A DNA stretch of 64,000 nt, from NCBI GenBank assembly GCA_965242505.1, contig OZ251449.1:3598630-3662629 (forward strand). The letters are read 5' to 3'. The notes under the pieces are model-generated. The model had not been told where the DNA came from, did not search any database, and saw only the letters and a program-made list of their open reading frames with translations. Shown in pieces: positions 1,559 to 25,305 of this stretch (its first letter is position 1; every line of letters begins with the position of its first letter). A program made the translations under genes and the position numbers. The stretch is from Alphaproteobacteria bacterium (GTDB lineage: Bacteria > Pseudomonadota > Alphaproteobacteria > UBA2966).

Positions 1559-2884
1559 ATGCCGGACGCTCCCCCGATCAGCCCCCTTGCGGAGATCTTC
1601 TCCGAGGCGGGGCGCCTCGAGCGGTATCTGGCCTTCGAGGCGGCGCTCGCCGAGGTCGAGGCCGAGCTCGGCCTGATACCCGAGGAGGCGGCGCGGGAGA
1701 TCGCGCGGGTCGCCACGCCCGGGACCATCGACACGGAGAGGCTCGCCGCCGACGCGCGGCGGACCGGGTATCCGATCGCGCCGCTGGCGCGCCAGCTCGC
1801 GGCGGCCTGCCGCGGCGAGCTGGGGCAGTTCGTCCACTGGGGAAGCACCACGCAGGACGTCATGGACACGGCGCTCGCGATGCAGTTCCGCGACGCCTTC
1901 GCGCACGTCGAGGGAGATCTGAAGGGCCTGGCCCGGGACCTCGCCGGTCTGGCGGCGCGGCACCGGGACACGCCGATGGCGGCGCGTACCTTCGGCGGGC
2001 ACGCCCTGCCGTTCACGTTCGGCGCCAAGGTCGCGCGCTGGCTGGCGCCGGTCTGCCGCCACGTCGAGCGCCTGGAAGAGATTCGCCCGCGCGTTCTCGT
2101 GGGCCAGTTCGGCGGCGCGGCGGGGACCCTGGCGTCCTTCGGCGGGCGCGGCGCGGAGGCGCGGGAGAGGCTGCTGGCGCGTCTCGGGCTGGGCGAGGCG
2201 GTCGCCGTCTGGCACACGGCGCGGGACACGGTGGCGGAGGCGGCCTGTTTCATGGGCCTCGTCACGGCGACCCTCGGCAAGATCGGACACGACGTGGCCG
2301 CTCTCGGCGCGAGCGACGTGGGCGAGGCGTTCGAGCCCGTCTCGGGCGGGCGGGACGCCAGCAGCGCGTTGCCGCAGAAACGGAATCCGGTGTATTCGGG
2401 GCGGATCGTCGCCAACGCGCGGATCGTCGCGAGCCACGTGTCCCTCGTGCTCGACTCCGCCCGGCACGACCACGAGCGGGGACCGCAGGGGTTCGTCGAG
2501 AACATGATCGCGCCGGAGATCTTCGTCCTTGCGGGCGAGGCCCTCGCCGCCGCGCGCCACGTCGCGGCGGGCCTCCGCGTGGACGCGGCGCGGATGCGCG
2601 CCAACCTCGAGTCCTCCCGCGGGGCCGTCATGGCCGAGGCCGCGGCGATGGCGCTGGCGCCGCGCCTCGGTCGCCTGCGGGCGAAGGACCTCGTCCACGA
2701 CGCCTGCCTGCGGGCGGAGGCCGAGGCGGCGGATCTGGCGTCCGTCCTCGCGTCGATCCCGGACGTCGCCGGGCTCGTCGACGGGGACGAGCTCGCGCGG
2801 GCGATGGAGCCCCGGAACTACCTGGGCGCGGCGGGCGCGGAAGTGGACCGGACGGTGGCCCTCGCGCGGGAGATCGCCGGATGA
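1559..2884 (+). CDS. pcaB: fumarate-lyase superfamily enzyme, 3-carboxy-cis,cis-muconate cycloisomerase-like
   Basis: 441-aa ORF; adenylosuccinate-lyase/PcaB family signature (GSSALPQKRNP); lies in the aromatic cluster. Confidence 0.7.
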   Translation: MPDAPPISPLAEIFSEAGRLERYLAFEAALAEVEAELGLIPEEAAREIARVATPGTIDTERLAADARRTGYPIAPLARQLAAACRGELGQFVHWGSTTQDVMDTALAMQFRDAFAHVEGDLKGLARDLAGLAARHRDTPMAARTFGGHALPFTFGAKVARWLAPVCRHVERLEEIRPRVLVGQFGGAAGTLASFGGRGAEARERLLARLGLGEAVAVWHTARDTVAEAACFMGLVTATLGKIGHDVAALGASDVGEAFEPVSGGRDASSALPQKRNPVYSGRIVANARIVASHVSLVLDSARHDHERGPQGFVENMIAPEIFVLAGEALAAARHVAAGLRVDAARMRANLESSRGAVMAEAAAMALAPRLGRLRAKDLVHDACLRAEAEAADLASVLASIPDVAGLVDGDELARAMEPRNYLGAAGAEVDRTVALAREIAG

Positions 2885-6343: not shown

Positions 6344-8029
6344 TCACATGAAGTCGAAATCGCAGCCCTGGTCCGCCTGGAGGACGGAGTCCACGTAGAG
6401 CTTGAGGTATCCCCGCTCGCTCCCCGGATGGGGGGGCGGGGGTTCCCAGCCCTCCCGGCGGGAGCGGAGCTCCGCCGCGTCGACGTCGAGCTCCAGCCGG
6501 CGCGCCTCGACGTCCAGGGAGATCGCGTCCCCGTCGCGGACGAGGGCGAGGGGGCCGCCGACGCAGGACTCCGGCGTGACGTGGAGGACGACCGCGCCGA
6601 ACGCGGCGCCGCTCATGCGGGCGTCGGACACGCGCACCATGTCCTTGACGCCCCGCCGGGCGAGTTTCCTCGGTATGGGCAGGTAGCCGGCCTCCGGCAT
6701 CCCGGGCGCGCCCCTGGGGCCGGCGTTCCTGAGGACGAGCACGCTGTCCGCGTCGACGTCGAGGTCCGGGTCGTCGATCCGCCGGGCGAGGTCCTCCAGG
6801 GACTCGAAGACGACCGCCCGGCCCCGGTGGGACAGGAGCTCGGGCGACGCGGCGGAATGCTTGATGACGGCGCCTCCCGGCGCGAGGTTCCCGCGCAGCA
6901 CCGCCAGCCCGCCCGAGGGCCGGACGGGCCTGTCGGGAGAGCGGACGACGTCCTGCCCGGACACGCGCTCCCCCTCCTCGATGTTCTCGCCGAGGGGGCG
7001 GCCGGTGATCGTCGGCGCGTCGAGCGCGAGATGCGGCGCGAGCTCGCGCAGCACCGCGTTCAGGCCGCCGGATTCGTGCAGGTTCTCCATGTAGTGCTCG
7101 CCCGACGGCTTGAGGTCGACGAGCACCGGCGTCTCGCGTCCGATGCGGTCGAACTCGTCGAGGTCGATGGCGAGGCCCAGCCGGCGGGCGATCGCCGCGA
7201 GATGGATCAGGGCGTTGGTGGATCCCCCGATCGCCTGGAGGACGACCAGGGCGTTGCGGAAGGCGTCGGCGGTCATGACCTCCGACGGGCGCGGCCCGGA
7301 CTCCGCCATCTCGACGGCCCGGCGGCCGGTCCGTTCGGCGATCCGCAGGCGGTCGGCGTTGACGGCGGGGATGGCGCCGCCGCCGGGCAGCATCATGCCG
7401 AGGGCCTCCGTCACGCAGGCCATGGTGCTCGCGGCGCCCATGACCATGCAGGCGCCGATGGTGGGCGCCAGGCGGCCGGTGATCTCGTCGATGTCGGCGT
7501 CGTCGAGCTCGCCGGCGCGGTAGCTCGCCCACAGGCGTCGGCAGTCGGTGCAGGCGCCCAGGCGGCGGCCCCGGTAGCGGCCCGTCATCATCGGCCCGGT
7601 GACGACGGCGGCGGCGGGGACGTCGGCGCTGGCCGCGGCCATGAGCTGGGCCGGCACGGTCTTGTCGCAGCCGCCGATCAGGACCACCGCGTCCATGGGC
7701 TGGGCGCGGATCATCTCTTCGGTGTCCATCGCCATCAGGTTCCGCAGGAACATGCTGGTGGGGTGGGAGAAGGATTCGTGGATCGAGATCGTCGGGAAGG
7801 CCATCGGCATCCCGCCGGCCAGCATGACGCCCCGCTTCACCGCCTCGACGAGCTTCGCCATGCCCCCGTGGCAGGCGTTGTAGTCGCCGCCGGTGTCGGC
7901 GATCCCGACGATGGGGCGCGTCAGGGCGTCGTCGGAATATCCCATCGCCTTGACGAAGGCGCGCCGCATGTAGAGGGAGAAGGCCTCGTCGCCGTACTGG
8001 GCGAGGCCCTTCCTCAGGCCCTTTTTCAT
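6344..8029 (-). CDS. IlvD/Edd family dehydratase (dihydroxy-acid / sugar-acid dehydratase)
   Basis: True start MKKGLRKG (ATG 8029) inside spurious 755-aa ORF 6344..8611; IlvD/EDD conserved blocks (CDKTVP, GGSTNA). Confidence 0.7.
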   Translation of the reverse strand: MKKGLRKGLAQYGDEAFSLYMRRAFVKAMGYSDDALTRPIVGIADTGGDYNACHGGMAKLVEAVKRGVMLAGGMPMAFPTISIHESFSHPTSMFLRNLMAMDTEEMIRAQPMDAVVLIGGCDKTVPAQLMAAASADVPAAAVVTGPMMTGRYRGRRLGACTDCRRLWASYRAGELDDADIDEITGRLAPTIGACMVMGAASTMACVTEALGMMLPGGGAIPAVNADRLRIAERTGRRAVEMAESGPRPSEVMTADAFRNALVVLQAIGGSTNALIHLAAIARRLGLAIDLDEFDRIGRETPVLVDLKPSGEHYMENLHESGGLNAVLRELAPHLALDAPTITGRPLGENIEEGERVSGQDVVRSPDRPVRPSGGLAVLRGNLAPGGAVIKHSAASPELLSHRGRAVVFESLEDLARRIDDPDLDVDADSVLVLRNAGPRGAPGMPEAGYLPIPRKLARRGVKDMVRVSDARMSGAAFGAVVLHVTPESCVGGPLALVRDGDAISLDVEARRLELDVDAAELRSRREGWEPPPPHPGSERGYLKLYVDSVLQADQGCDFDFM

Positions 8030-11296: not shown

Positions 11297-12493
11297 TCAT
11301 GTTCGTATCCCTTCGGCCTTGAGCCTGGAGATGAGCTGCTCCTGCGAGCCCGCGCCCTTCATGGAGTTGCATGCGCCACAGAGCAGTTGCAGGTTGTCGA
11401 GATGGCCGCTCCCGCCCCTCGAGCGTGGAATGACGTGATCGACGGTCAGGTTGCGGAACGGGAACAGGATGCGACACCCGCTGCACACACCTTCCTGTCG
11501 TCCGTAGAGTGAATGCTTGTGCGTCCGATAGTTGGGAAGCTCGCCCAGGTCCGTCCGGGTTGGAACGTCCTCCCGGTGCGCCACGTCGTTGAACAACGGC
11601 CCCCTGTCGTCGCGCAGGCGCTTGAGCACGAGCCGCGCCGCGAGCGGGGACAGATCGATGCCTGACCACTCGCGATTGAGCCTGTCGGCCGCCACGAGCG
11701 CAGTGGCGCACCCACAGAAGGGGTCGAGGACGATGTCGCCTTCGCTGGAACTGGCCTTGACGATGCGATCCAGGAGGGCGAGCGGCTTCTGGGTGGGGTA
11801 ACCGACGGCTTCGGGCTGGTTGCCGCGCAGCGCCGGAACGTCCCAATGATCCCTCATCCAGACCAGGGTGTACGGACCTCGTTCGTCTCGATGGATCTCG
11901 ACGTTGGAGAAACCGTACTCGTGACTCAGGCGCGACTTCTCCTTCTGCGGATGGAACCTGTAATCGGGCGTCTTCGCATAGAACAGGATCGTGTCGTGCT
12001 TTCTTCCGAACCGTCGGTTGCTGACGCCTCCCGTTCTGTACAGCCAGACGATTTCGTTCAGGAAGTTCTTGCGCCCGAATACCGCATCCATGAGCGTCTT
12101 GAGATAGTGCGATGCGGTCGGGTCGCAGTGCAGATAGACCGACCCGGACGGCTTGAGCAGGCGGCGCATTTCCAGCAACCGCACGGCCATCATGATGAGG
12201 TAGGACTTCATTCCCTTCCCGTGGGCGGACCCGGCGGCGTCGATGATGGCGTAGAGCGCGGGCTGCCGGTCGGCTATCTCGCCGTGCCATGCCTCGTCCA
12301 CGTCCGAGAGGGTCCAGGTGTCCTTGAACGCAGCCTCGGCGGCTTCGGAGCCGATGGGAGCCGAGTAGTCGCGGTTCGAGTTGAACGGCGGGTCAAGGTA
12401 GATCAGATCCACCGACTCGCTGTTCATGCCCCGCATGACGTCGAGGTTGTCGCCCGTCCACAGCGTCCGGTTGCGCCAGTTCGGGTCACTCAC
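11297..12493 (-). CDS. DNA methyltransferase-HNH endonuclease fusion; paralog 2 with divergent central target-recognition segment
   Basis: 398-aa ORF; N-terminal about 140 aa and C-terminal about 170 aa nearly identical to 9523..10896, while the central about 90-150 aa are unrelated. Confidence 0.75.
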   Translation of the reverse strand: MSDPNWRNRTLWTGDNLDVMRGMNSESVDLIYLDPPFNSNRDYSAPIGSEAAEAAFKDTWTLSDVDEAWHGEIADRQPALYAIIDAAGSAHGKGMKSYLIMMAVRLLEMRRLLKPSGSVYLHCDPTASHYLKTLMDAVFGRKNFLNEIVWLYRTGGVSNRRFGRKHDTILFYAKTPDYRFHPQKEKSRLSHEYGFSNVEIHRDERGPYTLVWMRDHWDVPALRGNQPEAVGYPTQKPLALLDRIVKASSSEGDIVLDPFCGCATALVAADRLNREWSGIDLSPLAARLVLKRLRDDRGPLFNDVAHREDVPTRTDLGELPNYRTHKHSLYGRQEGVCSGCRILFPFRNLTVDHVIPRSRGGSGHLDNLQLLCGACNSMKGAGSQEQLISRLKAEGIRT

Positions 12494-12750
12494 TGGATTG
12501 CCCGCATGATGAATCTCGCTTCAGTTCCAGGTGACTGCGCCATCGCTCCGTCCGCTTCCGGTTGTGTGGCCGCGAAGAGGCTGCGGTCGAGGGCTTGCCG
12601 GGCATCTTCCCGGATTTCGTCGCGCCGCCAAATGTCTTCGATACGTTCGATTTTCGCCGGAAGGATGAGCCGTTCGCCGATCCGTTCTTCGAGCTCCGGC
12701 TGTTTTCCGCATATGAAAGGAATTGGACCGACCCGCGCGCGGTCGGTCAT
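12490..12750 (-). CDS. conserved small hypothetical protein (86 aa); paralog 2
   Basis: Near-identical to 10893..11153; overlaps the MTase start (ATGA). Confidence 0.45.
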   Translation of the reverse strand: MTDRARVGPIPFICGKQPELEERIGERLILPAKIERIEDIWRRDEIREDARQALDRSLFAATQPEADGAMAQSPGTEARFIMRAIQ

Positions 12751-12834
12751 CTCGTCCGTTCAGGTCCGCGGCCCTTGATCGGTGGGCGCGTCGCTCATGG
12801 TCCGGGTCTCCCGTGCGTCGCCGGCTCGCCGACG

Positions 12835-12876
12835 GTCGGGAAAGCGGCGTCAGGTTGCCACAGCGGGGCGGCGTTC
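12835..12876. repeat. 42-bp direct repeat (copy 3 of 3)
   Basis: Identical to 9317..9358; extended similarity to copy 1 through about 12895. Confidence 0.85.
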
Positions 12877-12929
12877 GGCAAACGCCCCGGACTCCCGGTC
12901 GAACCGGCCTGGCGCCTCGTGGAACAGCT

Positions 12930-13080
12930 CTCCTCCCCCCTGGCGTGACCCCCACCCCGACCCTCCCCCTGCAAGGGGGAGGGAGAAGAAGGGGACGCGG
13001 AGGGAGCCGTCGACGCTCCTCCTCCCCTGACCATTCATACTCCTCCCCCCTGACAGGGGGGAGGTCGGGAGGGGGGTGAG
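12930..13080. repeat. REP-like palindromic element cluster
   Basis: GGCGTGACCCCCACCCCGACCCTCCCCCTGCAAGGGGGAGGGAGAAG ... CCCCTGACAGGGGGGAGGTCGGGAGGGGGG. Confidence 0.8.
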
Positions 13081-13223
13081 CGCCGGAGGCCGCCGCGCCC
13101 GCGCCGCCCGTCTCCCGGCTCGGCCGGCCCGCCGGGACGTACACGATATTGACTTATGTGGCGGTCATGAACATTCTCATGACCTTCACAACGGTCAATT
13201 CCGGTCATATGGAGTCCGGTCGC

Positions 13224-13559
13224 ATGGCGAACAGACCGCGCGCCTACTCGCGTCTCACCAGGGAGGCGCTGGTCCTTCTGGGCAAGCAGATCAGGCTCGC
13301 CCGCAAGGGGCGGCGCATGTCCGAACACGATCTCGCCGCCCGGGCCGGTATCGCCAGGAGCACCCTGCAACGCATCGAGAAGGGCGACCCTTCGGTCGAG
13401 ATCGGCCTCGCGCTGGAGGCCGCCACCCTCACGGGCGTCGACCTGTTCGCGCCGGAGGCGACGACGCTGGCGCCGCGGATCGGCCGCGTCGACGACAAGC
13501 TCGCCCTCATGCCGGGCTCGATCCGCAAGACCCGGCGCAAGGTCGACGATGATTTCTGA
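13224..13559 (+). CDS. XRE-family helix-turn-helix transcriptional regulator
   Basis: ATG 13224 preceded by a GGAG RBS; HTH_3-like block (LARKGRRMSEHDLAARAGIARSTLQRIEKGD). Confidence 0.6.
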   Translation: MANRPRAYSRLTREALVLLGKQIRLARKGRRMSEHDLAARAGIARSTLQRIEKGDPSVEIGLALEAATLTGVDLFAPEATTLAPRIGRVDDKLALMPGSIRKTRRKVDDDF

Positions 13560-18121: not shown

Positions 18122-18952
18122 ATGACGCACCCCGCAATGGCGCCCGGCCGCGTCGCCGTCGTCACCGGCGCGGCGAACGGCATCGGCCTCGCCGCCGTCA
18201 AGCGCTACGCCTCGTTCGGCATGAAGGTCTGCATGGCGGACGTGGACGGGGAGGCGCTGGCCGCCGCCGCCGGGGAGGTCGCGGAGATCGCCGCGGGCGG
18301 CGCCGGCGACGTGATGACGGCGCGGACCGACGTCGGCCGCCGCGAGGACGTCCTGGCGCTGAAGGAGGCCGCCTACGACCGGTTCGGCGAGGTCGCGGTC
18401 CTGATGAACAACGCGGCCACCCGGGCGCGGGCCGGAGCCCTCGACGGCCGCGAGGCGTGGGTGGAGTCGATGAACGTGAACCTGTGGGGCGTCGTCAACG
18501 GGACGCAGGCGTTCGCGCCCGCCATGATCGCGCAGGACACGCCGTGCGTCATCGTCAACACCAGCTCCAAGCAGGGCATCACGCTGCCGCCCGGCAACAC
18601 GCCCTACAACGTCGCCAAGGCGGGGGTGAAGGCCTATACCGAGCTGTTGCAGCACGAGCTCCGCAACGTCGAGGGATGCCGGGTGACGGCCCACATGCTG
18701 GTGCCCGGCTGGACCACCCGCGGCGGCTTCGAGCACCGGAAGGGCCAGTGGTCGCCCGACCAGGTGGTGGACAGGATGATCCCCGCGATCGAGCGCGGCG
18801 ACTTCTACATCGTCTGCCCCGACGACGACGTGACGCCGGAGATGGACCGCAAGCGGATCCTCTGGGGCGCCGGAGACATCGCCTACAACCGCCCGCCGCT
18901 CTCCCGCTGGCACGGCGATTACGACGAGGAGTTCGAACGCTTCGACGGGTGA
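18122..18952 (+). CDS. SDR-family short-chain dehydrogenase/reductase
   Basis: ATG 18122 after a GGAGATTGGAGA RBS; TGAANGIG cofactor motif and YNVAK catalytic motif. Confidence 0.75.
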   Translation: MTHPAMAPGRVAVVTGAANGIGLAAVKRYASFGMKVCMADVDGEALAAAAGEVAEIAAGGAGDVMTARTDVGRREDVLALKEAAYDRFGEVAVLMNNAATRARAGALDGREAWVESMNVNLWGVVNGTQAFAPAMIAQDTPCVIVNTSSKQGITLPPGNTPYNVAKAGVKAYTELLQHELRNVEGCRVTAHMLVPGWTTRGGFEHRKGQWSPDQVVDRMIPAIERGDFYIVCPDDDVTPEMDRKRILWGAGDIAYNRPPLSRWHGDYDEEFERFDG

Positions 18953-18984
18953 CGCCCGTTTCGGCCGGGCCGGCGGACCCGCGT

Positions 18985-19560
18985 CCGATCCACCCCCCTC
19001 CCTTCCCCCTCTTCTCCCTCTCCCTTGCAGGGGGAGGGTCGGGGTGGGGGTCGCGCCGGGGGAGGAGCGGCGACGGGGCCGGCGGCCGTGGTCCACCCCC
19101 CTCCCGACCTCCCCCCTGTTAGGGGGGAGGAGTGTAGGTGGTCAGGGGGGAGGAGTACGGATGGTCAGGGGGAGGAGCGTCGACGGCTCCCTCCCGTCCC
19201 CTTTCTTCTCCCTCTCCCTTGCAGGGGGAGGGTCGGGGTGGGGGTCGCGCCGGGGGAGGAGCGTCGACGGGGCCGGCGGCCGCGGTCCACCCCCCTCCCG
19301 ACCTCCCCCCTGTTAGGGGGGAGGAGTGTAGGTGGTCAGGGGGGGAGGAGTACGGATGGTCAGGGGGAGGAGCGTCGACGGCTCCCTCCCGACCCCTTTC
19401 TTCTCCCTCTCCCTTGCAGGGGGAGGGTCGGGGTGGGGGTCGCCGGCGGCGGCCGTGGTCCACCCCCCTCCCGACCTCCCCCCTGTTATGGGGGAGGAGT
19501 ACGGATGGTCAGGGGGAGGGTCGGGGTGGGGGTCCGTGTTCCCGTTCGGTATGATCGCTG
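18985..19560. repeat. array of about three tandem copies of a composite about 190-bp unit built from REP-like hairpin modules
   Basis: Repeated unit contains CTTCTCCCTCTCCCTTGCAGGGGGAGGGTCGGGGTGGGGGTCGCGCC ... CCACCCCCCTCCCGACCTCCCCCCTGTTAGGGGGGAGGAGT; no unique spacers. Confidence 0.8.
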
Positions 19561-19608
19561 AATAGCGCCTTGCCGGGAACAAACAGGGAAACTATATTCG
19601 GGACCGTC

Positions 19609-22419
19609 ATGACCCCGGACGAGTTCATCGCCAAGTGGCGCGCGTCGGAACTGAAGGAGCGCTCGGCCGCGCAGGAGCACTTCATCGACCTGTGCCGGCT
19701 GCTGGACGAGCCGACGCCGGCCGAGGCCGACCCCGCGGGCGAGACCTACTGCTTCGAGCGCGGGGCGCGCAAGGACGCCGGCGGCGACGGCTGGGCCGAC
19801 GTGTGGAAGCGCCACTGCTTCGCCTGGGAGTACAAGGGCCGGCGCGCCGACCTCGACGCCGCCTTCAACCAGCTGCGGCAGTACGCGCTGGCGCTGGAGA
19901 ACCCGCCGCTGCTGATCGTCTCGGACATGGCGCGGTTCCGCATCCGCACCAACTGGACCAACAGCGTGAGCGAAACGCGCGAGTTCGCGCTGGAGGACCT
20001 CGCCGACGCGGCGGTTCGCGAGAAGCTCAAGTGGGCGATGTCGGACCCGGAGCGGCTGCGTCCGGGGGAGAGCCGGCAGGCGCTGACGGAGCGGGCGGCG
20101 TCGGCGTTCGCGGCCCTGGCGCAGTCGTTGCGGGGACGCGGCCACGAGGCGCGCGCGGTGGCGCATTTCGTGAACCGGCTGGTGTTCTGCATGTTCGCGG
20201 AGGACGTGGGGCTGCTGCCCGACAGGATGTTCACGCGGATGCTCGAACACGCGCGGCGGCGGCCCGAAGGCTTCGCGGAGTTGGCGAGCCGCCTGTTCGG
20301 GGCGATGTCCGAAGGCGGCGACGTGGGGTTCGAGACGGTTTCGTGGTTCAACGGCGGCCTGTTCGACGACGACGCGGCGCTGCCGCTGGAGAAGGAGGAG
20401 ATCGAGACGGCGCTCGCGGCGGCGGCGCTGGACTGGTCGGAGATCGACCCGTCGATCCTGGGGACGCTGTTCGAACGCGGGCTGGACCCGGACAAGCGCT
20501 CGCAACTGGGGGCGCACTACACCGACCGCGACAAGATCATGCGGATCGTGGAGCCGGTGATCGTCCGCCCCTGGCTCGCCGAATGGGAGGCGGCGAAGGC
20601 GGAGATCGGGGCGGCGCTGGAGCGGGCGCGGACGCCGCGGCAGGCGGAGCGGAAGCTGCAAGACTTCCTGGGGCGGCTCCGCGCCTTCACGGTGCTGGAC
20701 CCGGCGTGCGGGTCGGGGAACTTCCTCTATCTGGCGCTGCACGCGCTGAAGGACCTGGAGCACCGGGTGCAGCTGGAGGCGGAGGCGCTGGGGCTGCAAC
20801 GGTCGTTCCCCGAGATCGGGCCGGCGAACGTCAAGGGGATCGAGGTCAACGCCTACGCGGCGGAACTGGCGCGGGTGTCGGTGTGGATCGGCGAGATCCA
20901 GTGGATGCGGCGCAACGGGTTCCTCGAGTCGCGCGATCCGATCCTGAAGCCGCTCGACACCATCGAACGCCGCGACGCGATCCTGACGCCGGAGGGCGGG
21001 GAGCCGGACTGGCCGGAGGCCGACGTCGTCATCGGCAACCCGCCGTTCCTGGGTAGTTCACGCATACAGTCGGCGCTGGGGGATGCCTATAAGGAAAATT
21101 TGCATAAGGTCTACAAGAGCCGTGTTCCCGGCGCGGCGGACCTCGTGTGTTACTGGTTCCACAAGGCCGGTGGTTTGGTGGCGCGAGGCGCGATCGCCCG
21201 CGCCGGTCTGGTGGCGACAAACTCGATCCGGGGCGGGCGTAACCGCACCGTGCTCGACCGGATCGTTGAACAGGGCGCCATTTTCGACGCTTGGTCGGAT
21301 GAGCCGTGGGTGGTGGATGGCGCAGCGGTGCGGGTGTCGCTGGTGTGCTTTGCCGGCCGCAGCGAGGCTTCCGAGTATCGTTTGAACGGAATGCTTGCCC
21401 CGGGTATTTCCGCGGACTTGGTGGCTTCTTCATCGCGGGCCTTGGGACGTTCGGCGCGTCGGTTGCGGGCAAACCGAGGGGCCTGCTTCCGGTCAGGGGA
21501 AAAAGGGGGAGCGTTCGATATTTCCGGTCAATTGGCGCGTGAGTGGCTTTGCCTGCCCGCGAACCCGAATGGCAGACCCAATTCCGACGTTCTCCGGCCG
21601 TGGATCAACGGTCTGGACGTAACCCGTCGTCCACTCGATCAATGGATCATCGACTTCGGTTACGAAATGAGCGAAGCCGATGCGGCGCTCTATGAGAAGC
21701 CTTTTGCTCATATCGCAACGCATGTGAAGCCTGCGCGATCACGGAATCGGGTGGGGGCGCTCAAGATGTCCTGGTGGCGGCATCGCCGCTTCGTGGCGGA
21801 GCTCCGTGAGGCTCTGAACGGGTTGACGCGCTACATCGCCACTCCCCGCGTCGCCAAGCATCGGTTGTTCGTCTGGTGCGACGCCCGGATTTCTCCCGAC
21901 TCCGCCTTGACGGTGGTGGCCCGCGACGACGACACGACCTTCGGCATCCTCCACAGCCGCTTTCACGAGGCATGGTCGCTGCGGTTGGGCACTTGGTTGG
22001 GGAAAGGCAACGACCCGCGCTACACCCCCACCACCACTTTCGAGACCTTTCCCTTCCCGGAAGGACTCTCGCCCGATGTTCCCGCCGCCGACTATGCGAA
22101 CGACCCCCGCGCCGCCGCCATCGCCGAGGCCGCCCGTCGTCTGGTGGACTTACGCGACCGCTGGCTGAATCCGCCCGAATGGGTGGAGTGGGTGGACGAA
22201 CCGGTTCCGGGCTACCCCAGGCGCCCCGTCCCCCGCGATGAAGCGGCTGCGAAGGAACTCAGGAAGCGCACCTTGACCAACCTCTACAACGCCCGCCCCC
22301 AATGGCTGGCGGACGCCCACGCCGCCCTCGACGCCGCCGTGGCGGCGGCCTATGGTTGGGATGCGGAAATCGCCGAGGAAGAAGCGCTGCGGGAGCTGCT
22401 GGCGTTGAACTTGAGATAG
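19609..22419 (+). CDS. MmeI-family type IIL restriction-modification enzyme (N-terminal PD-ExK nuclease plus gamma-class N6-adenine methyltransferase plus TRD)
   Basis: N-terminus FIAKWRASELKERSAAQEHFIDLCRLL and (D)...EYK nuclease block match the MmeI architecture; NPPF motif IV; ORF 19570 starts at TTG, and ATG 19609 (MTPDEFIAKW) is the preferred start. Confidence 0.7.
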   Translation: MTPDEFIAKWRASELKERSAAQEHFIDLCRLLDEPTPAEADPAGETYCFERGARKDAGGDGWADVWKRHCFAWEYKGRRADLDAAFNQLRQYALALENPPLLIVSDMARFRIRTNWTNSVSETREFALEDLADAAVREKLKWAMSDPERLRPGESRQALTERAASAFAALAQSLRGRGHEARAVAHFVNRLVFCMFAEDVGLLPDRMFTRMLEHARRRPEGFAELASRLFGAMSEGGDVGFETVSWFNGGLFDDDAALPLEKEEIETALAAAALDWSEIDPSILGTLFERGLDPDKRSQLGAHYTDRDKIMRIVEPVIVRPWLAEWEAAKAEIGAALERARTPRQAERKLQDFLGRLRAFTVLDPACGSGNFLYLALHALKDLEHRVQLEAEALGLQRSFPEIGPANVKGIEVNAYAAELARVSVWIGEIQWMRRNGFLESRDPILKPLDTIERRDAILTPEGGEPDWPEADVVIGNPPFLGSSRIQSALGDAYKENLHKVYKSRVPGAADLVCYWFHKAGGLVARGAIARAGLVATNSIRGGRNRTVLDRIVEQGAIFDAWSDEPWVVDGAAVRVSLVCFAGRSEASEYRLNGMLAPGISADLVASSSRALGRSARRLRANRGACFRSGEKGGAFDISGQLAREWLCLPANPNGRPNSDVLRPWINGLDVTRRPLDQWIIDFGYEMSEADAALYEKPFAHIATHVKPARSRNRVGALKMSWWRHRRFVAELREALNGLTRYIATPRVAKHRLFVWCDARISPDSALTVVARDDDTTFGILHSRFHEAWSLRLGTWLGKGNDPRYTPTTTFETFPFPEGLSPDVPAADYANDPRAAAIAEAARRLVDLRDRWLNPPEWVEWVDEPVPGYPRRPVPRDEAAAKELRKRTLTNLYNARPQWLADAHAALDAAVAAAYGWDAEIAEEEALRELLALNLR

Positions 22420-22449
22420 TGAGACCGTTTGAGAAAGGAGTCGATAACA

Positions 22450-24120
22450 ATGGACAAAGAAAAGAAACGATTTCTGCAACAAGGTAAACTCGATGATCTG
22501 AGACATGATCGCAAGTTGAATGAAATGCTCACGGTATATGAATCCAATATCGGAAAATGGCATAATCATGGAACCTATAGTGTGCTGATCCCAAATCAAA
22601 TAGCCGATCATATTCTTTCCAGTTCTTCTTGGGATTTTCGTCATGGTCAGGGAACTCCGGGAAGGATGATTCGTAATTACGGTCATAACAAATCTGTCAA
22701 ATACCTCCGATACGGTAACGACGATGGTATGGAGCCATTGGTTATTGTTCGACATTTTTCGGGAATCAAAGACGATCATGTGGAGTTAAGTGAAGAATTC
22801 CGTTTGTTGCATAATCTGTATCATGATCGGAAAAAAGATCGATTCATCAAGATCGTTGATGGTGGAGAAGAGCAAGTGGTTGCCTGTGTTAAGCCTGACT
22901 TGATTGAGGTGCGGCTTAAGGAAATTCGACAATTTCTGTCAATAAAAGAAATGTATCTTTCTATGCAATTCGATTATATCGAATACTCCGACTTGTCGCT
23001 CTCTGAAATGAATTTACCTGCAAAAGAAGATGAAGAAAAGAGAGAAGGGGATATGCATTGGTTTTGGAACTGTGGCGAAGATCCTACCAGTACAGATTAC
23101 AAGTCGTTTAGCCGCTTGCTCGGAAAGCGTCTTTATGGTCCTCTGCCCAAATCGAAAAGTGGATTCGATGAGAGTAAGAAAGAATATGAGGAGTTTGTAA
23201 TAGGTATCGATGAAGATGGGAACGAAGTGAAGTTTACGTCGGATCCGGATATGTTGGCCGATTATTTCGGTGCGAACCCAGATGCGCCGAATTATCTTAC
23301 ATCTGTATATTTTAACAAAGAAGTTCTTGATAAATACTATCATCATTCGAGCAGATATACTGTTGAAGATTCTTTGCTTCGATGTGGATCCTTTTGGGTT
23401 CTTTGTATGGACAATCATCATGAAGACAAAGTTTGCGTATGGCTGGGAGACTTAGGGAGGGCCCTTCCGTACAAAGAACAGCTGCACTGGCGGGCGCATA
23501 ATATCATTCCACAAGGTAACATAAGCGAAACCTTTTACCGCAATCAAATTTTGGCAGAACCTATGAATTCAACGAATCCAGAACATGTCTTTCGGAGACA
23601 CTTTCATGATCTCCATGGTTTATGCCAGACTCGACTTGGATGGCCTATCTTCCTTCAGCTGGAACCTGAAGATCGACATCACTTGACGACGATGAGAGTT
23701 CCATCATCCAACGAACAAAGGGAATTCGATGAACTGATCCTCGGACTCACAAAGATACTTATAGATTCTTTGAATGTAAAAGGACTGAGAGGGATTGCGC
23801 CAAACAGAGGAAGGAACAAAAATCCCGGCAGCATCGACACGCTGCAAGAAGCACTGGATGCCATTGGTGTAACAGATTATGATGAACATGTGTCATTTTT
23901 GCGGGATCTTCAAAACCTGAGATCGTCGGGATCGGCGCATAGAAAGGGAAAGAGGTATAGCATGATTTCTGAAAAATTTGGTATGACCGAACACCATCGT
24001 CAGGATGTTTTCAAGACGATACTTGGAAAATCCTGTGATTTTTTGAGTTATTTGATCTGTCTTGTCGAAAGTGGCCGTATCGGCAACAACGATAGCTCCG
24101 GGTCCGCGTCTAGCGCTTGA
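22450..24120 (+). CDS. hypothetical protein, 556 aa, strongly AT-rich ORFan directly downstream of MmeI-like gene
   Basis: ATG 22450 with a consensus AAAGGAG RBS 9 nt upstream; about 38% GC against about 70% in flanks; no recognisable domain. Confidence 0.6.
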   Translation: MDKEKKRFLQQGKLDDLRHDRKLNEMLTVYESNIGKWHNHGTYSVLIPNQIADHILSSSSWDFRHGQGTPGRMIRNYGHNKSVKYLRYGNDDGMEPLVIVRHFSGIKDDHVELSEEFRLLHNLYHDRKKDRFIKIVDGGEEQVVACVKPDLIEVRLKEIRQFLSIKEMYLSMQFDYIEYSDLSLSEMNLPAKEDEEKREGDMHWFWNCGEDPTSTDYKSFSRLLGKRLYGPLPKSKSGFDESKKEYEEFVIGIDEDGNEVKFTSDPDMLADYFGANPDAPNYLTSVYFNKEVLDKYYHHSSRYTVEDSLLRCGSFWVLCMDNHHEDKVCVWLGDLGRALPYKEQLHWRAHNIIPQGNISETFYRNQILAEPMNSTNPEHVFRRHFHDLHGLCQTRLGWPIFLQLEPEDRHHLTTMRVPSSNEQREFDELILGLTKILIDSLNVKGLRGIAPNRGRNKNPGSIDTLQEALDAIGVTDYDEHVSFLRDLQNLRSSGSAHRKGKRYSMISEKFGMTEHHRQDVFKTILGKSCDFLSYLICLVESGRIGNNDSSGSASSA

Positions 24121-24299
24121 AGTGGATGGCTGAGAGATCGGGGAACCTACGAGCGTCGCCTCCCTGTCACGTCCCCCGCTCGCGGTGGACGGACAGGTTC
24201 ATGCGCGTCGACAACGTCGTCCGCGCCTTGCGCGGGGTGCGGCCCGGACCATGACGAGGCGGCTCCTGGAACGAGCGATCCCGACCGGCGGCGCGTCCG

Positions 24300-24445
24300 G
24301 ACCCCCCTCCCGACCTCCCCCCTGTCAGGGGGGAGGAGAAGAAGGGGTACAGGGGGAGGAGTATTTAGTGGTCAGGGGGGAAGGGGTGTCGTCGGCCCCT
24401 CCGTCCCCCCTCTTCTCCCTTCCCCTTGCAGGGGAGAGGAGCGCC
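24300..24445. repeat. REP-like palindromic element cluster
   Basis: Same family modules. Confidence 0.8.
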
Positions 24446-24468
24446 AAGGGACCCTGCGGCGGCCTGCG

Positions 24469-25305
24469 TCAGTTCAGCAGGGCCGCGTACTCGTCGAGCT
24501 TCTTCAGCGCCTCGTCGCGCGCGGAGGACGGCATCTCCAGCAGGACGCGGGTGGCGCCGGCCGCCTCGTAGGCCTCGACCGTCTCCCGGTCGGGCGTAGG
24601 GCGGAACACCGTGACGGAAAGGGTCGACATGTCGCGGCCGGCCTCGTCGGCCACGGCCCCGAGCTTGGCCATCGTCTCCTCGGGCGTCCCGGCGGGGGCG
24701 GCCCGCGGCAGCCAGCCGTCGCAGAACTCCACGACGCGGCGGAGCGTGTGGACCGACTCGCCGCCGAGGATGATCGGCGGATGCGGCTTCTGCGCGGGCT
24801 TGGGATAGCACCACGACGGCTCGACGTCGACGTAGTCGCCATGGAACGAGGCCTCCTCCTCGGTCCACAGGGCCTTCATGGCGAGCAGGCGCTCGCGCAG
24901 CAGCTTGAACCGCGTCCGGGGGTCGGTGCCGTGGTTCTCCATCTCCTCGAGGTTCCAGCCGCCGCCGGCGCCGAGGATGAACCGGCCGCCGGACAGCGCG
25001 TCGAGGCTGGCGACGGCCTTGGCCGTGACGATGGGGTCGCGCTGGATGATGAGGCAGATCCCGGTGCCGAGCTTCAGGGTGCTGGTGGCGGACGCCGCGA
25101 ACGAGAGCGCCACGAACGGATCGTGCGTGCGGACGTAGCGCCGGGGCAGCTCGCCGCCGCCGGGAAACGGCGACCTGCGGCTGGTCGGGATGTGCGTGTG
25201 TTCGCACAGGAACAACGATTCGAAGCCGCGGGCCTCGAGCTCCCTGGCGAGCTCGGGAACCTCGATCGCGTAGTCGGTGGGAAAGAAGAAAACGCCCTTG
25301 TGCAT
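24469..25305 (-). CDS. LLM-class F420/flavin-dependent oxidoreductase (luciferase-like)
   Basis: Start MHKGVFFFPTDY (ATG 25305) after a GGAGGA RBS; luciferase-like TIM-barrel family. Confidence 0.65.
   Translation of the reverse strand: MHKGVFFFPTDYAIEVPELARELEARGFESLFLCEHTHIPTSRRSPFPGGGELPRRYVRTHDPFVALSFAASATSTLKLGTGICLIIQRDPIVTAKAVASLDALSGGRFILGAGGGWNLEEMENHGTDPRTRFKLLRERLLAMKALWTEEEASFHGDYVDVEPSWCYPKPAQKPHPPIILGGESVHTLRRVVEFCDGWLPRAAPAGTPEETMAKLGAVADEAGRDMSTLSVTVFRPTPDRETVEAYEAAGATRVLLEMPSSARDEALKKLDEYAALLN

Follow-up and report, generated by a model that had tools for sequence, protein, structure and literature searches.

Within a 64-kb stretch of alphaproteobacterial DNA (64,000 nucleotides of contig OZ251449.1; hereafter the window), a gene for an MmeI-family Type IIL restriction-modification (R-M) enzyme is followed on the same strand by an AT-rich open reading frame (ORF) for a 556-amino-acid (aa) protein, which we refer to as B. 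On balance we consider it probable that B is an autonomous, single-protein abortive-infection effector with a HEPN ribonuclease (RNase) domain that is docked in an R-M locus. This reading is carried by the motif and fold of B, the size of its family, the gene contexts of its homologs, the mobility of the two-gene cassette and purifying selection on the protein.

Gene B (22450..24120, + strand, ATG start) encodes a protein of two parts. The N-terminal part, aa 1 to ~365 (22450..23544, +), is a beta-rich, predicted sensor or regulatory domain, and the C-terminal part, aa ~375-545 (23572..24084, +), is a helical, predicted HEPN ribonuclease domain. The latter contains the predicted HEPN catalytic motif R491-S-S-G-S-A-H497 (R-x5-H; 23920..23940, +), followed by RKG. 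In an alignment of 31 close homologs the RS(S/A/T)xxAHRKG block with R491-x5-H497 was invariant, and R491, H497 and K499 were at least 90% conserved across 68 distant representatives that are 31-46% identical to B. An AlphaFold model of the full-length protein (predicted local distance difference test, pLDDT, 70) was beta-rich from aa 1 to ~350 and helical over aa ~375-545, and the model of the C-terminal domain has the four-helix up-and-down HEPN fold. By motif and modeled fold, we assign the C-terminal domain of B to HEPN and predict that it is a metal-independent endoribonuclease. Ribonucleases of the HEPN superfamily characteristically form a dimer that has a composite active site.

The N-terminal domain gave a better model when folded alone from 120 sequences (pLDDT 86.7). 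Its only clear structural neighbor was SeAvs3 (PDB 8dgc), matched over 159 residues at 10% sequence identity. Cap4, Mrr, STAND and TPR structures were all missing from the fold matches of B, which suggests that the matched part of SeAvs3 may be an Avs3-specific beta domain. Nuclease profiles and structures, PD-(D/E)xK and HNH included, were likewise absent from the matches to B.

Searches of B against Pfam, PADLOC, NCBIfam and PHROG returned no match at E ≤ 1, the profile libraries recognized no family in 31 close relatives, 68 distant ones or three plasmid homologs, and sequence searches of the PDB, with the single sequence or with a profile, gave only noise (e.g. doublecortin and Gag). At least 1,552 homologs came out of a word-indexed search; the best 120 are full-length at ~50% identity, with Burkholderiales, Planctomycetota, Gemmatimonadota, Desulfobacterales and Methylocaldum named among them. 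A genome scan added more phyla, among them Chloroflexota, Campylobacterota and Cyanobacteria, and one archaeal (Methanosaeta) metagenome-assembled genome (MAG). By exhaustive profile search the family comprises at least 2,468 cluster representatives (50% identity) at E ≤ 1e-3, 933 of them at E ≤ 1e-30, and nearly all are 530-570 aa long and match end to end. Database entries label these relatives "hypothetical protein". A sequence-only reading of this DNA had called B an ORFan with no recognizable domain; the family size overturns the first description, and the R-x5-H motif and HEPN fold overturn the second. Compared with the ortholog in L002, the genome most closely related to the window, B has a ratio of nonsynonymous to synonymous substitution rates (dN/dS) of 0.21, and B is therefore under purifying selection. 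Rare relatives carry fused domains, namely a C-terminal PNP_UDP_1 phosphorylase-superfamily domain (P0185) and an XRE-type HTH_3 domain at the N terminus (P0141) or the C terminus (P0262).

The gene upstream of B, ORF A (19609..22419, +), encodes a 936-aa protein (N-terminus MTPDEFIAKWRASELKERSAAQ) that combines nuclease, methyltransferase and putative target-recognition parts in a single polypeptide. Its PD-ExK nuclease motif, read from the translation, is D64-x9-E74-Y-K76, and the motif of MmeI itself is D70-x9-E80-x-K82. Past a helical spacer, the same chain carries the DPACGSGNF (motif I) and NPPF (motif IV) sequences of a gamma-class N6-adenine methyltransferase. Pfam models for MmeI_N (48 bits, threshold 27), MmeI_hel (53 bits) and MmeI_Mtase (107 bits) scored above threshold, and the C-terminal models MmeI_TRD (21.8 bits) and MmeI_C (19.7 bits) scored under the 27-bit threshold. 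The PADLOC Type IIG model REase_MTase_IIG reached 1017 bits, with full-length IIG models aligning up to residue ~820. Judged by its sequence, ORF A is an intact, solitary MmeI-type Type IIL enzyme, in agreement with the sequence-only reading. Enzymes of this family characteristically cleave ~20 nt away from their site and modify a single strand. Neither PADLOC nor the neighboring genes showed BREX or DISARM partner genes near ORF A, which rules it out as a component of either system.

The 30-nucleotide (nt) spacer between the MmeI stop codon and B (22420..22449, +) contains a textbook ribosome-binding site (RBS), GAAAGGAG, at 22433..22440; both the gap and the site had been correctly read earlier. 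No terminator-like site was found between the two genes, and a sigma-70-like promoter candidate (19570..19598, +; TTGCCG-17-TATATT, only a 9/12 consensus match) lies just 5′ of the MmeI start codon. Because of this promoter-like site, the spacing and the lack of an intervening terminator-like site, we suggest that MmeI and B are probably a two-gene operon and would be co-transcribed.

The pair behaves as a cassette. The window is syntenic with L002, a 3.55-Mb alphaproteobacterial MAG, with identities of 90-93% in the flanks, 87% in MmeI and 80% in the B region. In all, the MmeI-B pair occurs in four related alphaproteobacterial sequences, with B at 22450..24120 in the window, 10001..11689 in L002, 255..1937 in L085 and 2144..3823 in L087. 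The L085 pair occupies the same locus as that of the window, with an NYN (PIN-like) RNase gene (2284..2850) added after B, and the L087 pair sits at a different locus, where it adjoins groEL/groES instead of a luciferase-like gene. The frame of B is intact in the four diverged copies, and all four keep a 27-30 nt MmeI-B junction with the RBS and start codon. Also kept in all four, L087 included, is a GC-rich 3′ tail of ~85 nt (24121..24205, +), which can form a hairpin at 24163..24197; since its fold energy is ordinary for its composition (z -0.65), a terminator role for this tail is only a guess. Synonymous divergence (dS) between the window and L002 reaches 0.51 in MmeI and 0.56 in B, compared with 0.10-0.21 in flanking genes. 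Because the two values are equal and well above those of the flanks, MmeI and B share a history apart from their surroundings and move as a unit. In L002 an extra 398-aa gene (12149..13345) lies between B and the luciferase-like gene and has a weak, below-threshold match to a DDE transposase (E 1.5e-4); at the position of this insertion sequence (IS)-like gene the window has only palindromic repeats.

How B came to stand behind MmeI can be read from the orthologs of the enzyme. B followed none of 70 evaluable metagenomic MmeI orthologs (54-76% identity), and the slot after these orthologs is hypervariable, with 30 clusters among 33 same-strand neighbors (L088-L167). Its occupants are often defense-like genes, such as an AT-rich HNH nuclease, Mrr, NOV_C (DUF3883) and a STAND-like ATPase (examples: L089 3565..4383, L164 3360..4244, L121 3469..4362 and L155 6986..8560). 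Because the orthologs lack B and the slot genes are unrelated, B is a late, facultative addition to a variable "defense slot" behind this MmeI lineage. Since that addition MmeI and B have stayed a single cassette during transfer, reaching a second chromosomal site as well. The earlier proposal that B was independently acquired thus stands for its late arrival and fails for the time since then, in which it has moved with MmeI.

We surveyed the contexts of B homologs at 80 genome loci by clustering the neighbor genes and annotating cluster representatives. In nine loci (L006, L012, L013, L017, L045 and L054-L057) the gene order is hsdM-(Bro-N)-hsdS-B-hsdR, in nine a Type IIG enzyme (~1,030 aa, Type_ISP_C, PADLOC IIG) lies immediately 5′ of B, and in three a PD-T4-4-like AAA_15 ATPase pair lies upstream. 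MmeI precedes B in L002, and a Pontiella MAG (L035) shows this order independently. Many copies of B are solitary, with groEL, rapA, histidine kinases or other housekeeping genes around them. In Poribacteria, a block of a PD-T4-4-like AAA_15 gene with a small partner, B and a PIN gene occurs both with and without a Type IIG R-M gene between the partner and B (L075, L077 and L080 compared with L076 and L079), from which it follows that R-M genes insert beside B as well as the reverse. Distant homologs also occur on plasmids, at 7902..9482 of L082 (P. syringae pPma4326F) and 7665..9377 of L084 (P. aeruginosa pWTJH6), with 37% and 22% identity to B. These plasmid homologs are placed as cargo of a gamma-mobile-trio island, right behind gmtX, and next to CBASS genes: a SAVED gene ~0.5 kb from a plasmid homolog belongs to a CBASS-like set, whose nucleotidyltransferase, E1/ThiF and JAB-type genes lie further downstream.

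The idea, advanced from sequence alone, that B is a defense accessory or an abortive-infection partner fits the HEPN motif and fold and the homologs in Type I, IIG, MmeI and other defense loci. Neither of the refuting conditions set out with this idea holds, as B homologs do neighbor restriction and defense genes, and B matches no unrelated well-known family. The qualifier "of unknown type" must be dropped, as R-M-linked HEPN effectors are already a described kind (PMC3710099). We picture B as an abortive-infection layer behind the DNA-level barrier set by the MmeI enzyme. Its N-terminal ~365-aa domain would most likely sense an infection cue, and the RNase would stay off until then. Once triggered, the HEPN domain would act as a metal-independent endoribonuclease through R491 and H497, cleaving RNA of the host, the phage or both, with tRNA anticodon loops and mRNA as possible targets, so that translation would stop. 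The module tends to settle inside or behind R-M genes, with which it later moves.

Several points weigh against this reading. By a strict count an R-M gene lies within 5 kb upstream of B on the same strand in 19 of 71 evaluable loci; about three quarters of these loci have no nearby R-M gene, and the inference of a defense role leans on a minority of contexts. The N-terminal domain, with several invariant acidic, His and Asn residues, could itself be catalytic. Co-transcription of MmeI and B is suggested only by how the two genes are spaced and by the absence of a terminator-like site between them. We place alongside these points, as neutral, that the phage collection searched held no B homologs.

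An alternative to an autonomous effector is a guard arrangement like that of PrrC, whose biology has been reviewed (PMC3710099; bioRxiv 10.1101/2024.01.29.577857). Here the R-M enzyme, in the window MmeI, would bind B and keep it latent, a phage anti-restriction protein would unleash the RNase, and both genes would make up a single functional system. The nine Type I loci, in which B takes exactly the PrrC slot between hsdS and hsdR, speak for such an arrangement, as do ~11 more loci with B directly after a single-chain Type IIG or MmeI enzyme and the joint movement of MmeI and B with their 27-30 nt junction and similar dS. Set against this, the partner R-M enzymes are unrelated in architecture (a Type I complex, Type IIG and MmeI), many B homologs have no R-M neighbor at all, and all 70 evaluable MmeI orthologs do without B. 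Moreover, B has no Pfam match to the ABC ATPase domain through which PrrC is regulated, and we found no evidence that its R-M neighbor masks B as in PrrC. We therefore consider a guard arrangement unlikely, with some chance of being correct.

B could also be part of an addiction module, whether as a toxin or by partnering a PIN or NYN RNase in a two-RNase module, mainly stabilizing its cassette through post-segregational killing and sensing no phage. B does recur paired with a PIN-type RNase: in 35 of the 80 loci, mainly Poribacteria, Latescibacterota and Caldilineaceae MAGs, a 136-aa PIN gene overlaps the B stop by 4 bp (L010, L018, L021-L023, L026, L027, L030-L034, L037, L041-L044, L046, L050-L053, L059, L061-L063, L066, L069, L073, L075-L077, L079 and L080). 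The NYN gene after B in L085 and the mobility of the cassette point the same way. Against it, there is no PIN gene in the 64-kb window and no NYN gene after B there, and no MNT or other small antitoxin gene adjoins B in the window or its three closest relatives. At 556 aa, and with its large conserved N-terminal domain, B does not resemble a typical toxin of a toxin-antitoxin pair, and the neighbors of B are more often defense systems than plasmid-maintenance genes. Taken together, these observations make an addiction module improbable.

A further alternative places the main effector in the N-terminal domain, for example as a nuclease or other enzyme related to a domain of Avs3, and makes the HEPN domain a non-catalytic RNA- or ligand-binding or dimerization module. 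The N-terminal domain is indeed conserved above the C-terminal one, with E112, E116, R118, D321, N322, D334 and E343 invariant, and some HEPN domains, such as that of MtlR, are non-catalytic (PMC3710099). On the other side, the family-wide conservation of R491 and H497 is the signature of a catalytic HEPN domain, no nuclease such as Cap4 or Mrr appears among the profile or structure matches, and the SeAvs3 match is not assigned to any segment of Avs3. We doubt, to much the same degree as for addiction, that the N-terminal domain is the main effector.

The composition of B bears on its age and upkeep. With a GC content of 0.42, and 0.40 at third codon positions (GC3), B stands out from MmeI (GC3 0.86) and from the window (GC 0.69); the foreign composition noted in the sequence-only reading is confirmed, although its "about 38%" was slightly low. 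In the four cassette copies GC3 is 0.39-0.43 for B and 0.82-0.86 for MmeI, and B lies below the GC of its flanks in 72 of 74 loci across many phyla, by a mean of 8 points. Counting polarized, lineage-specific third-position changes in B gave 104/302 from A/T to G/C (W>S) and 80/186 in the opposite direction (S>W), for a predicted equilibrium GC3 of ~0.45, a rough estimate from a four-taxon parsimony count. Rough as it is, this equilibrium lies far from the GC3 of MmeI and argues that the AT-richness of B is held in place and is not decaying, with no drift to host composition. That B is a decaying or non-functional foreign insertion, its AT-richness marking recent junk DNA, is suggested by the strongly deviant composition and the IS-like gene adjoining B in L002, and is extremely improbable given the intact frame in four diverged copies, the dN/dS of 0.21, the kept start codon and RBS and the thousands of full-length homologs.

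Beyond an autonomous effector at this one locus, we advance with reserve, as a possibility, a broader proposal. B may found a very widespread, uncharacterized single-gene anti-phage system that joins a HEPN RNase to a sensor domain akin in structure to part of Avs3, the terminase sensor, and that has docked repeatedly, as a second layer, in 3′ or internal slots of Type I, IIG and MmeI operons. Its AT-rich coding would then be actively maintained as an expression brake on a toxic gene, through rare codons or xenogeneic silencing, and would not be the fading trace of a recent transfer.

The cassette lies between repeats that are context and fall outside the module: a repetitive extragenic palindromic (REP)-like array upstream (18985..19540, no strand assigned; tandem, period ~194 nt) and a REP-like repeat pair downstream (24298..24445, no strand assigned), near whose position relatives carry the IS-like gene (L002) or the NYN gene (L085). 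The window has 16 copies of a 34-nt palindromic unit, CCCTCCCGACCTCCCCCCTGTNAGGGGGGAGGAG (4786, 13040, 16642, 17928, 19099, 19293, 19466, 24305, 25541, 44512, 48580, 57272, 58051, 59009, 62278 and 62428) and 17 of a second unit, CTCCCTTGCAGGGGGAGGG, both mostly in intergenic DNA. These repeats are a genome-wide family, similar to REP elements or bacterial interspersed mosaic elements, of the source alphaproteobacterium. The palindromic arrays described earlier are thus present, and the role given to them as bounds of the gene pair is rejected, because the unit recurs 16 times across the window. A search of 18500..25000 against Rfam returned only sub-threshold hairpin matches within the REP repeats.

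The B family has thousands of members in many bacterial phyla, has no profile model and is missing from the 2023 PADLOC catalogue. If B defends against phage, it adds one more common single-gene system, and its N-terminal domain could, if the reading is true, reveal a new infection cue, possibly related to the sensing of phage proteins by Avs3. The MmeI-B cassette is also a clean natural case in which to ask whether a back-up effector depends on its R-M neighbor, and why a gene stays at 40% GC3 beside a co-inherited gene at 85% GC3.

Among known systems, ApeA, reportedly described by Gao et al. in 2020, resembles B in being a single polypeptide of ~550-600 aa whose HEPN motif falls near residue 490-520 and whose N-terminal region has no known homology. 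It differs in being, by description, predominantly alpha-helical, whereas the N-terminal 350 aa of B are beta-rich. The ApeA models of Pfam (HEPN_Apea/ApeA_NTD1) and PADLOC did not match B (E ≤ 1), its 31 close relatives (E ≤ 10) or its 68 distant relatives (E ≤ 0.1), and hhalign of the family profile against the first ~400 residues (N-terminal and Mid) of six ApeA proteins gave a probability of 0.06%; by these tests B is not a member of ApeA. One B relative, P0080 (Methylocaldum marinum sS8_1304), bears the UniRef name "ApeA N-terminal domain-containing protein"; no ApeA-related Pfam match was found in it or in the other scanned relatives (99 in all), and either the model has changed or the name was inherited. 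ApeA is activated by 5′-phospho-deoxydinucleotides (Juozapaitis et al. 2026 preprint), the pocket for the dinucleotide being made by its alpha-helical N-terminal and Mid domains. Like DARNA, it is a single-protein HEPN system that acts as a tRNA anticodon nuclease (bioRxiv 10.64898/2026.01.26.701840; 10.64898/2026.02.22.705581). DARNA, too, was set aside as an identity for B, its HEPN domain being N-terminal and the protein all-helical.

HepT/MNT and minimal HEPN toxins (PDB 5yep, 7ae2) form small two-gene systems with an MNT antitoxin, and B is four times larger; no MNT gene adjoins B in the window, L001, L085 or L087, which excludes a HEPN-MNT toxin-antitoxin pair. Avs proteins have a central STAND NTPase, an effector at the N terminus and a sensor at the C terminus. 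SeAvs3 is a STAND-NTPase sensor of phage terminase, whereas B has no profile for a STAND NTPase, TPR or Cap4 nuclease; with no NTPase domain and a resemblance confined to 159 residues, B is not an Avs protein. PADLOC-DB v2, the 2023 defense catalogue from which B is absent, already takes in the "embedded" candidates put forward by Payne et al. (bioRxiv 10.1101/2024.01.29.577857).

A matching description comes from a purely computational survey, which defined an "ApeA/BMEI1217" HEPN clade whose "ApeA-NTD1" domain of ~300 aa is mostly beta strands and which lies in epsilonproteobacterial R-M operons (Anantharaman et al. 2013, PMC3710099). B fits this description in its beta-rich N-terminal domain joined to HEPN, its embedding in R-M loci and its presence in epsilonproteobacteria, with homologs in Campylobacterales, Arcobacter and Sulfurospirillaceae. 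None of the B-family members tested is matched by the Pfam models that were built on this clade. B may correspond to the "ApeA-NTD1 + HEPN" clade of 2013.

In predicted function B resembles the HEPN anticodon nucleases PrrC/RloC, ApeA and DARNA, and PrrC, of the EcoprrI Type Ic R-M locus, offers a close comparison. In both PrrC and B the HEPN RNase domain (predicted, in the case of B) is C-terminal and carries an R-x(4-6)-H motif, and B homologs take the PrrC slot in nine loci, with MmeI instead as the partner in the window. PrrC has an N-terminal ABC ATPase, whereas B has an unrelated beta-rich domain, and the absence of an ABC (Rad50/SbcC-like) ATPase profile match from B and its relatives excludes B as a member of PrrC/RloC. 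PrrC lies nearly always inside Type I R-M systems, whereas B also comes after Type IIG and MmeI enzymes and often stands alone. HEPN proteins linked to R-M have been proposed to provide multi-layer defense (PMC3710099), and HEPN RNase effectors tied to R-M are already established through PrrC and the 2013 survey; what is new is the B family and its N-terminal domain. In their logic PrrC and B would be alike, each an RNA-level back-up behind a DNA-level R-M barrier.

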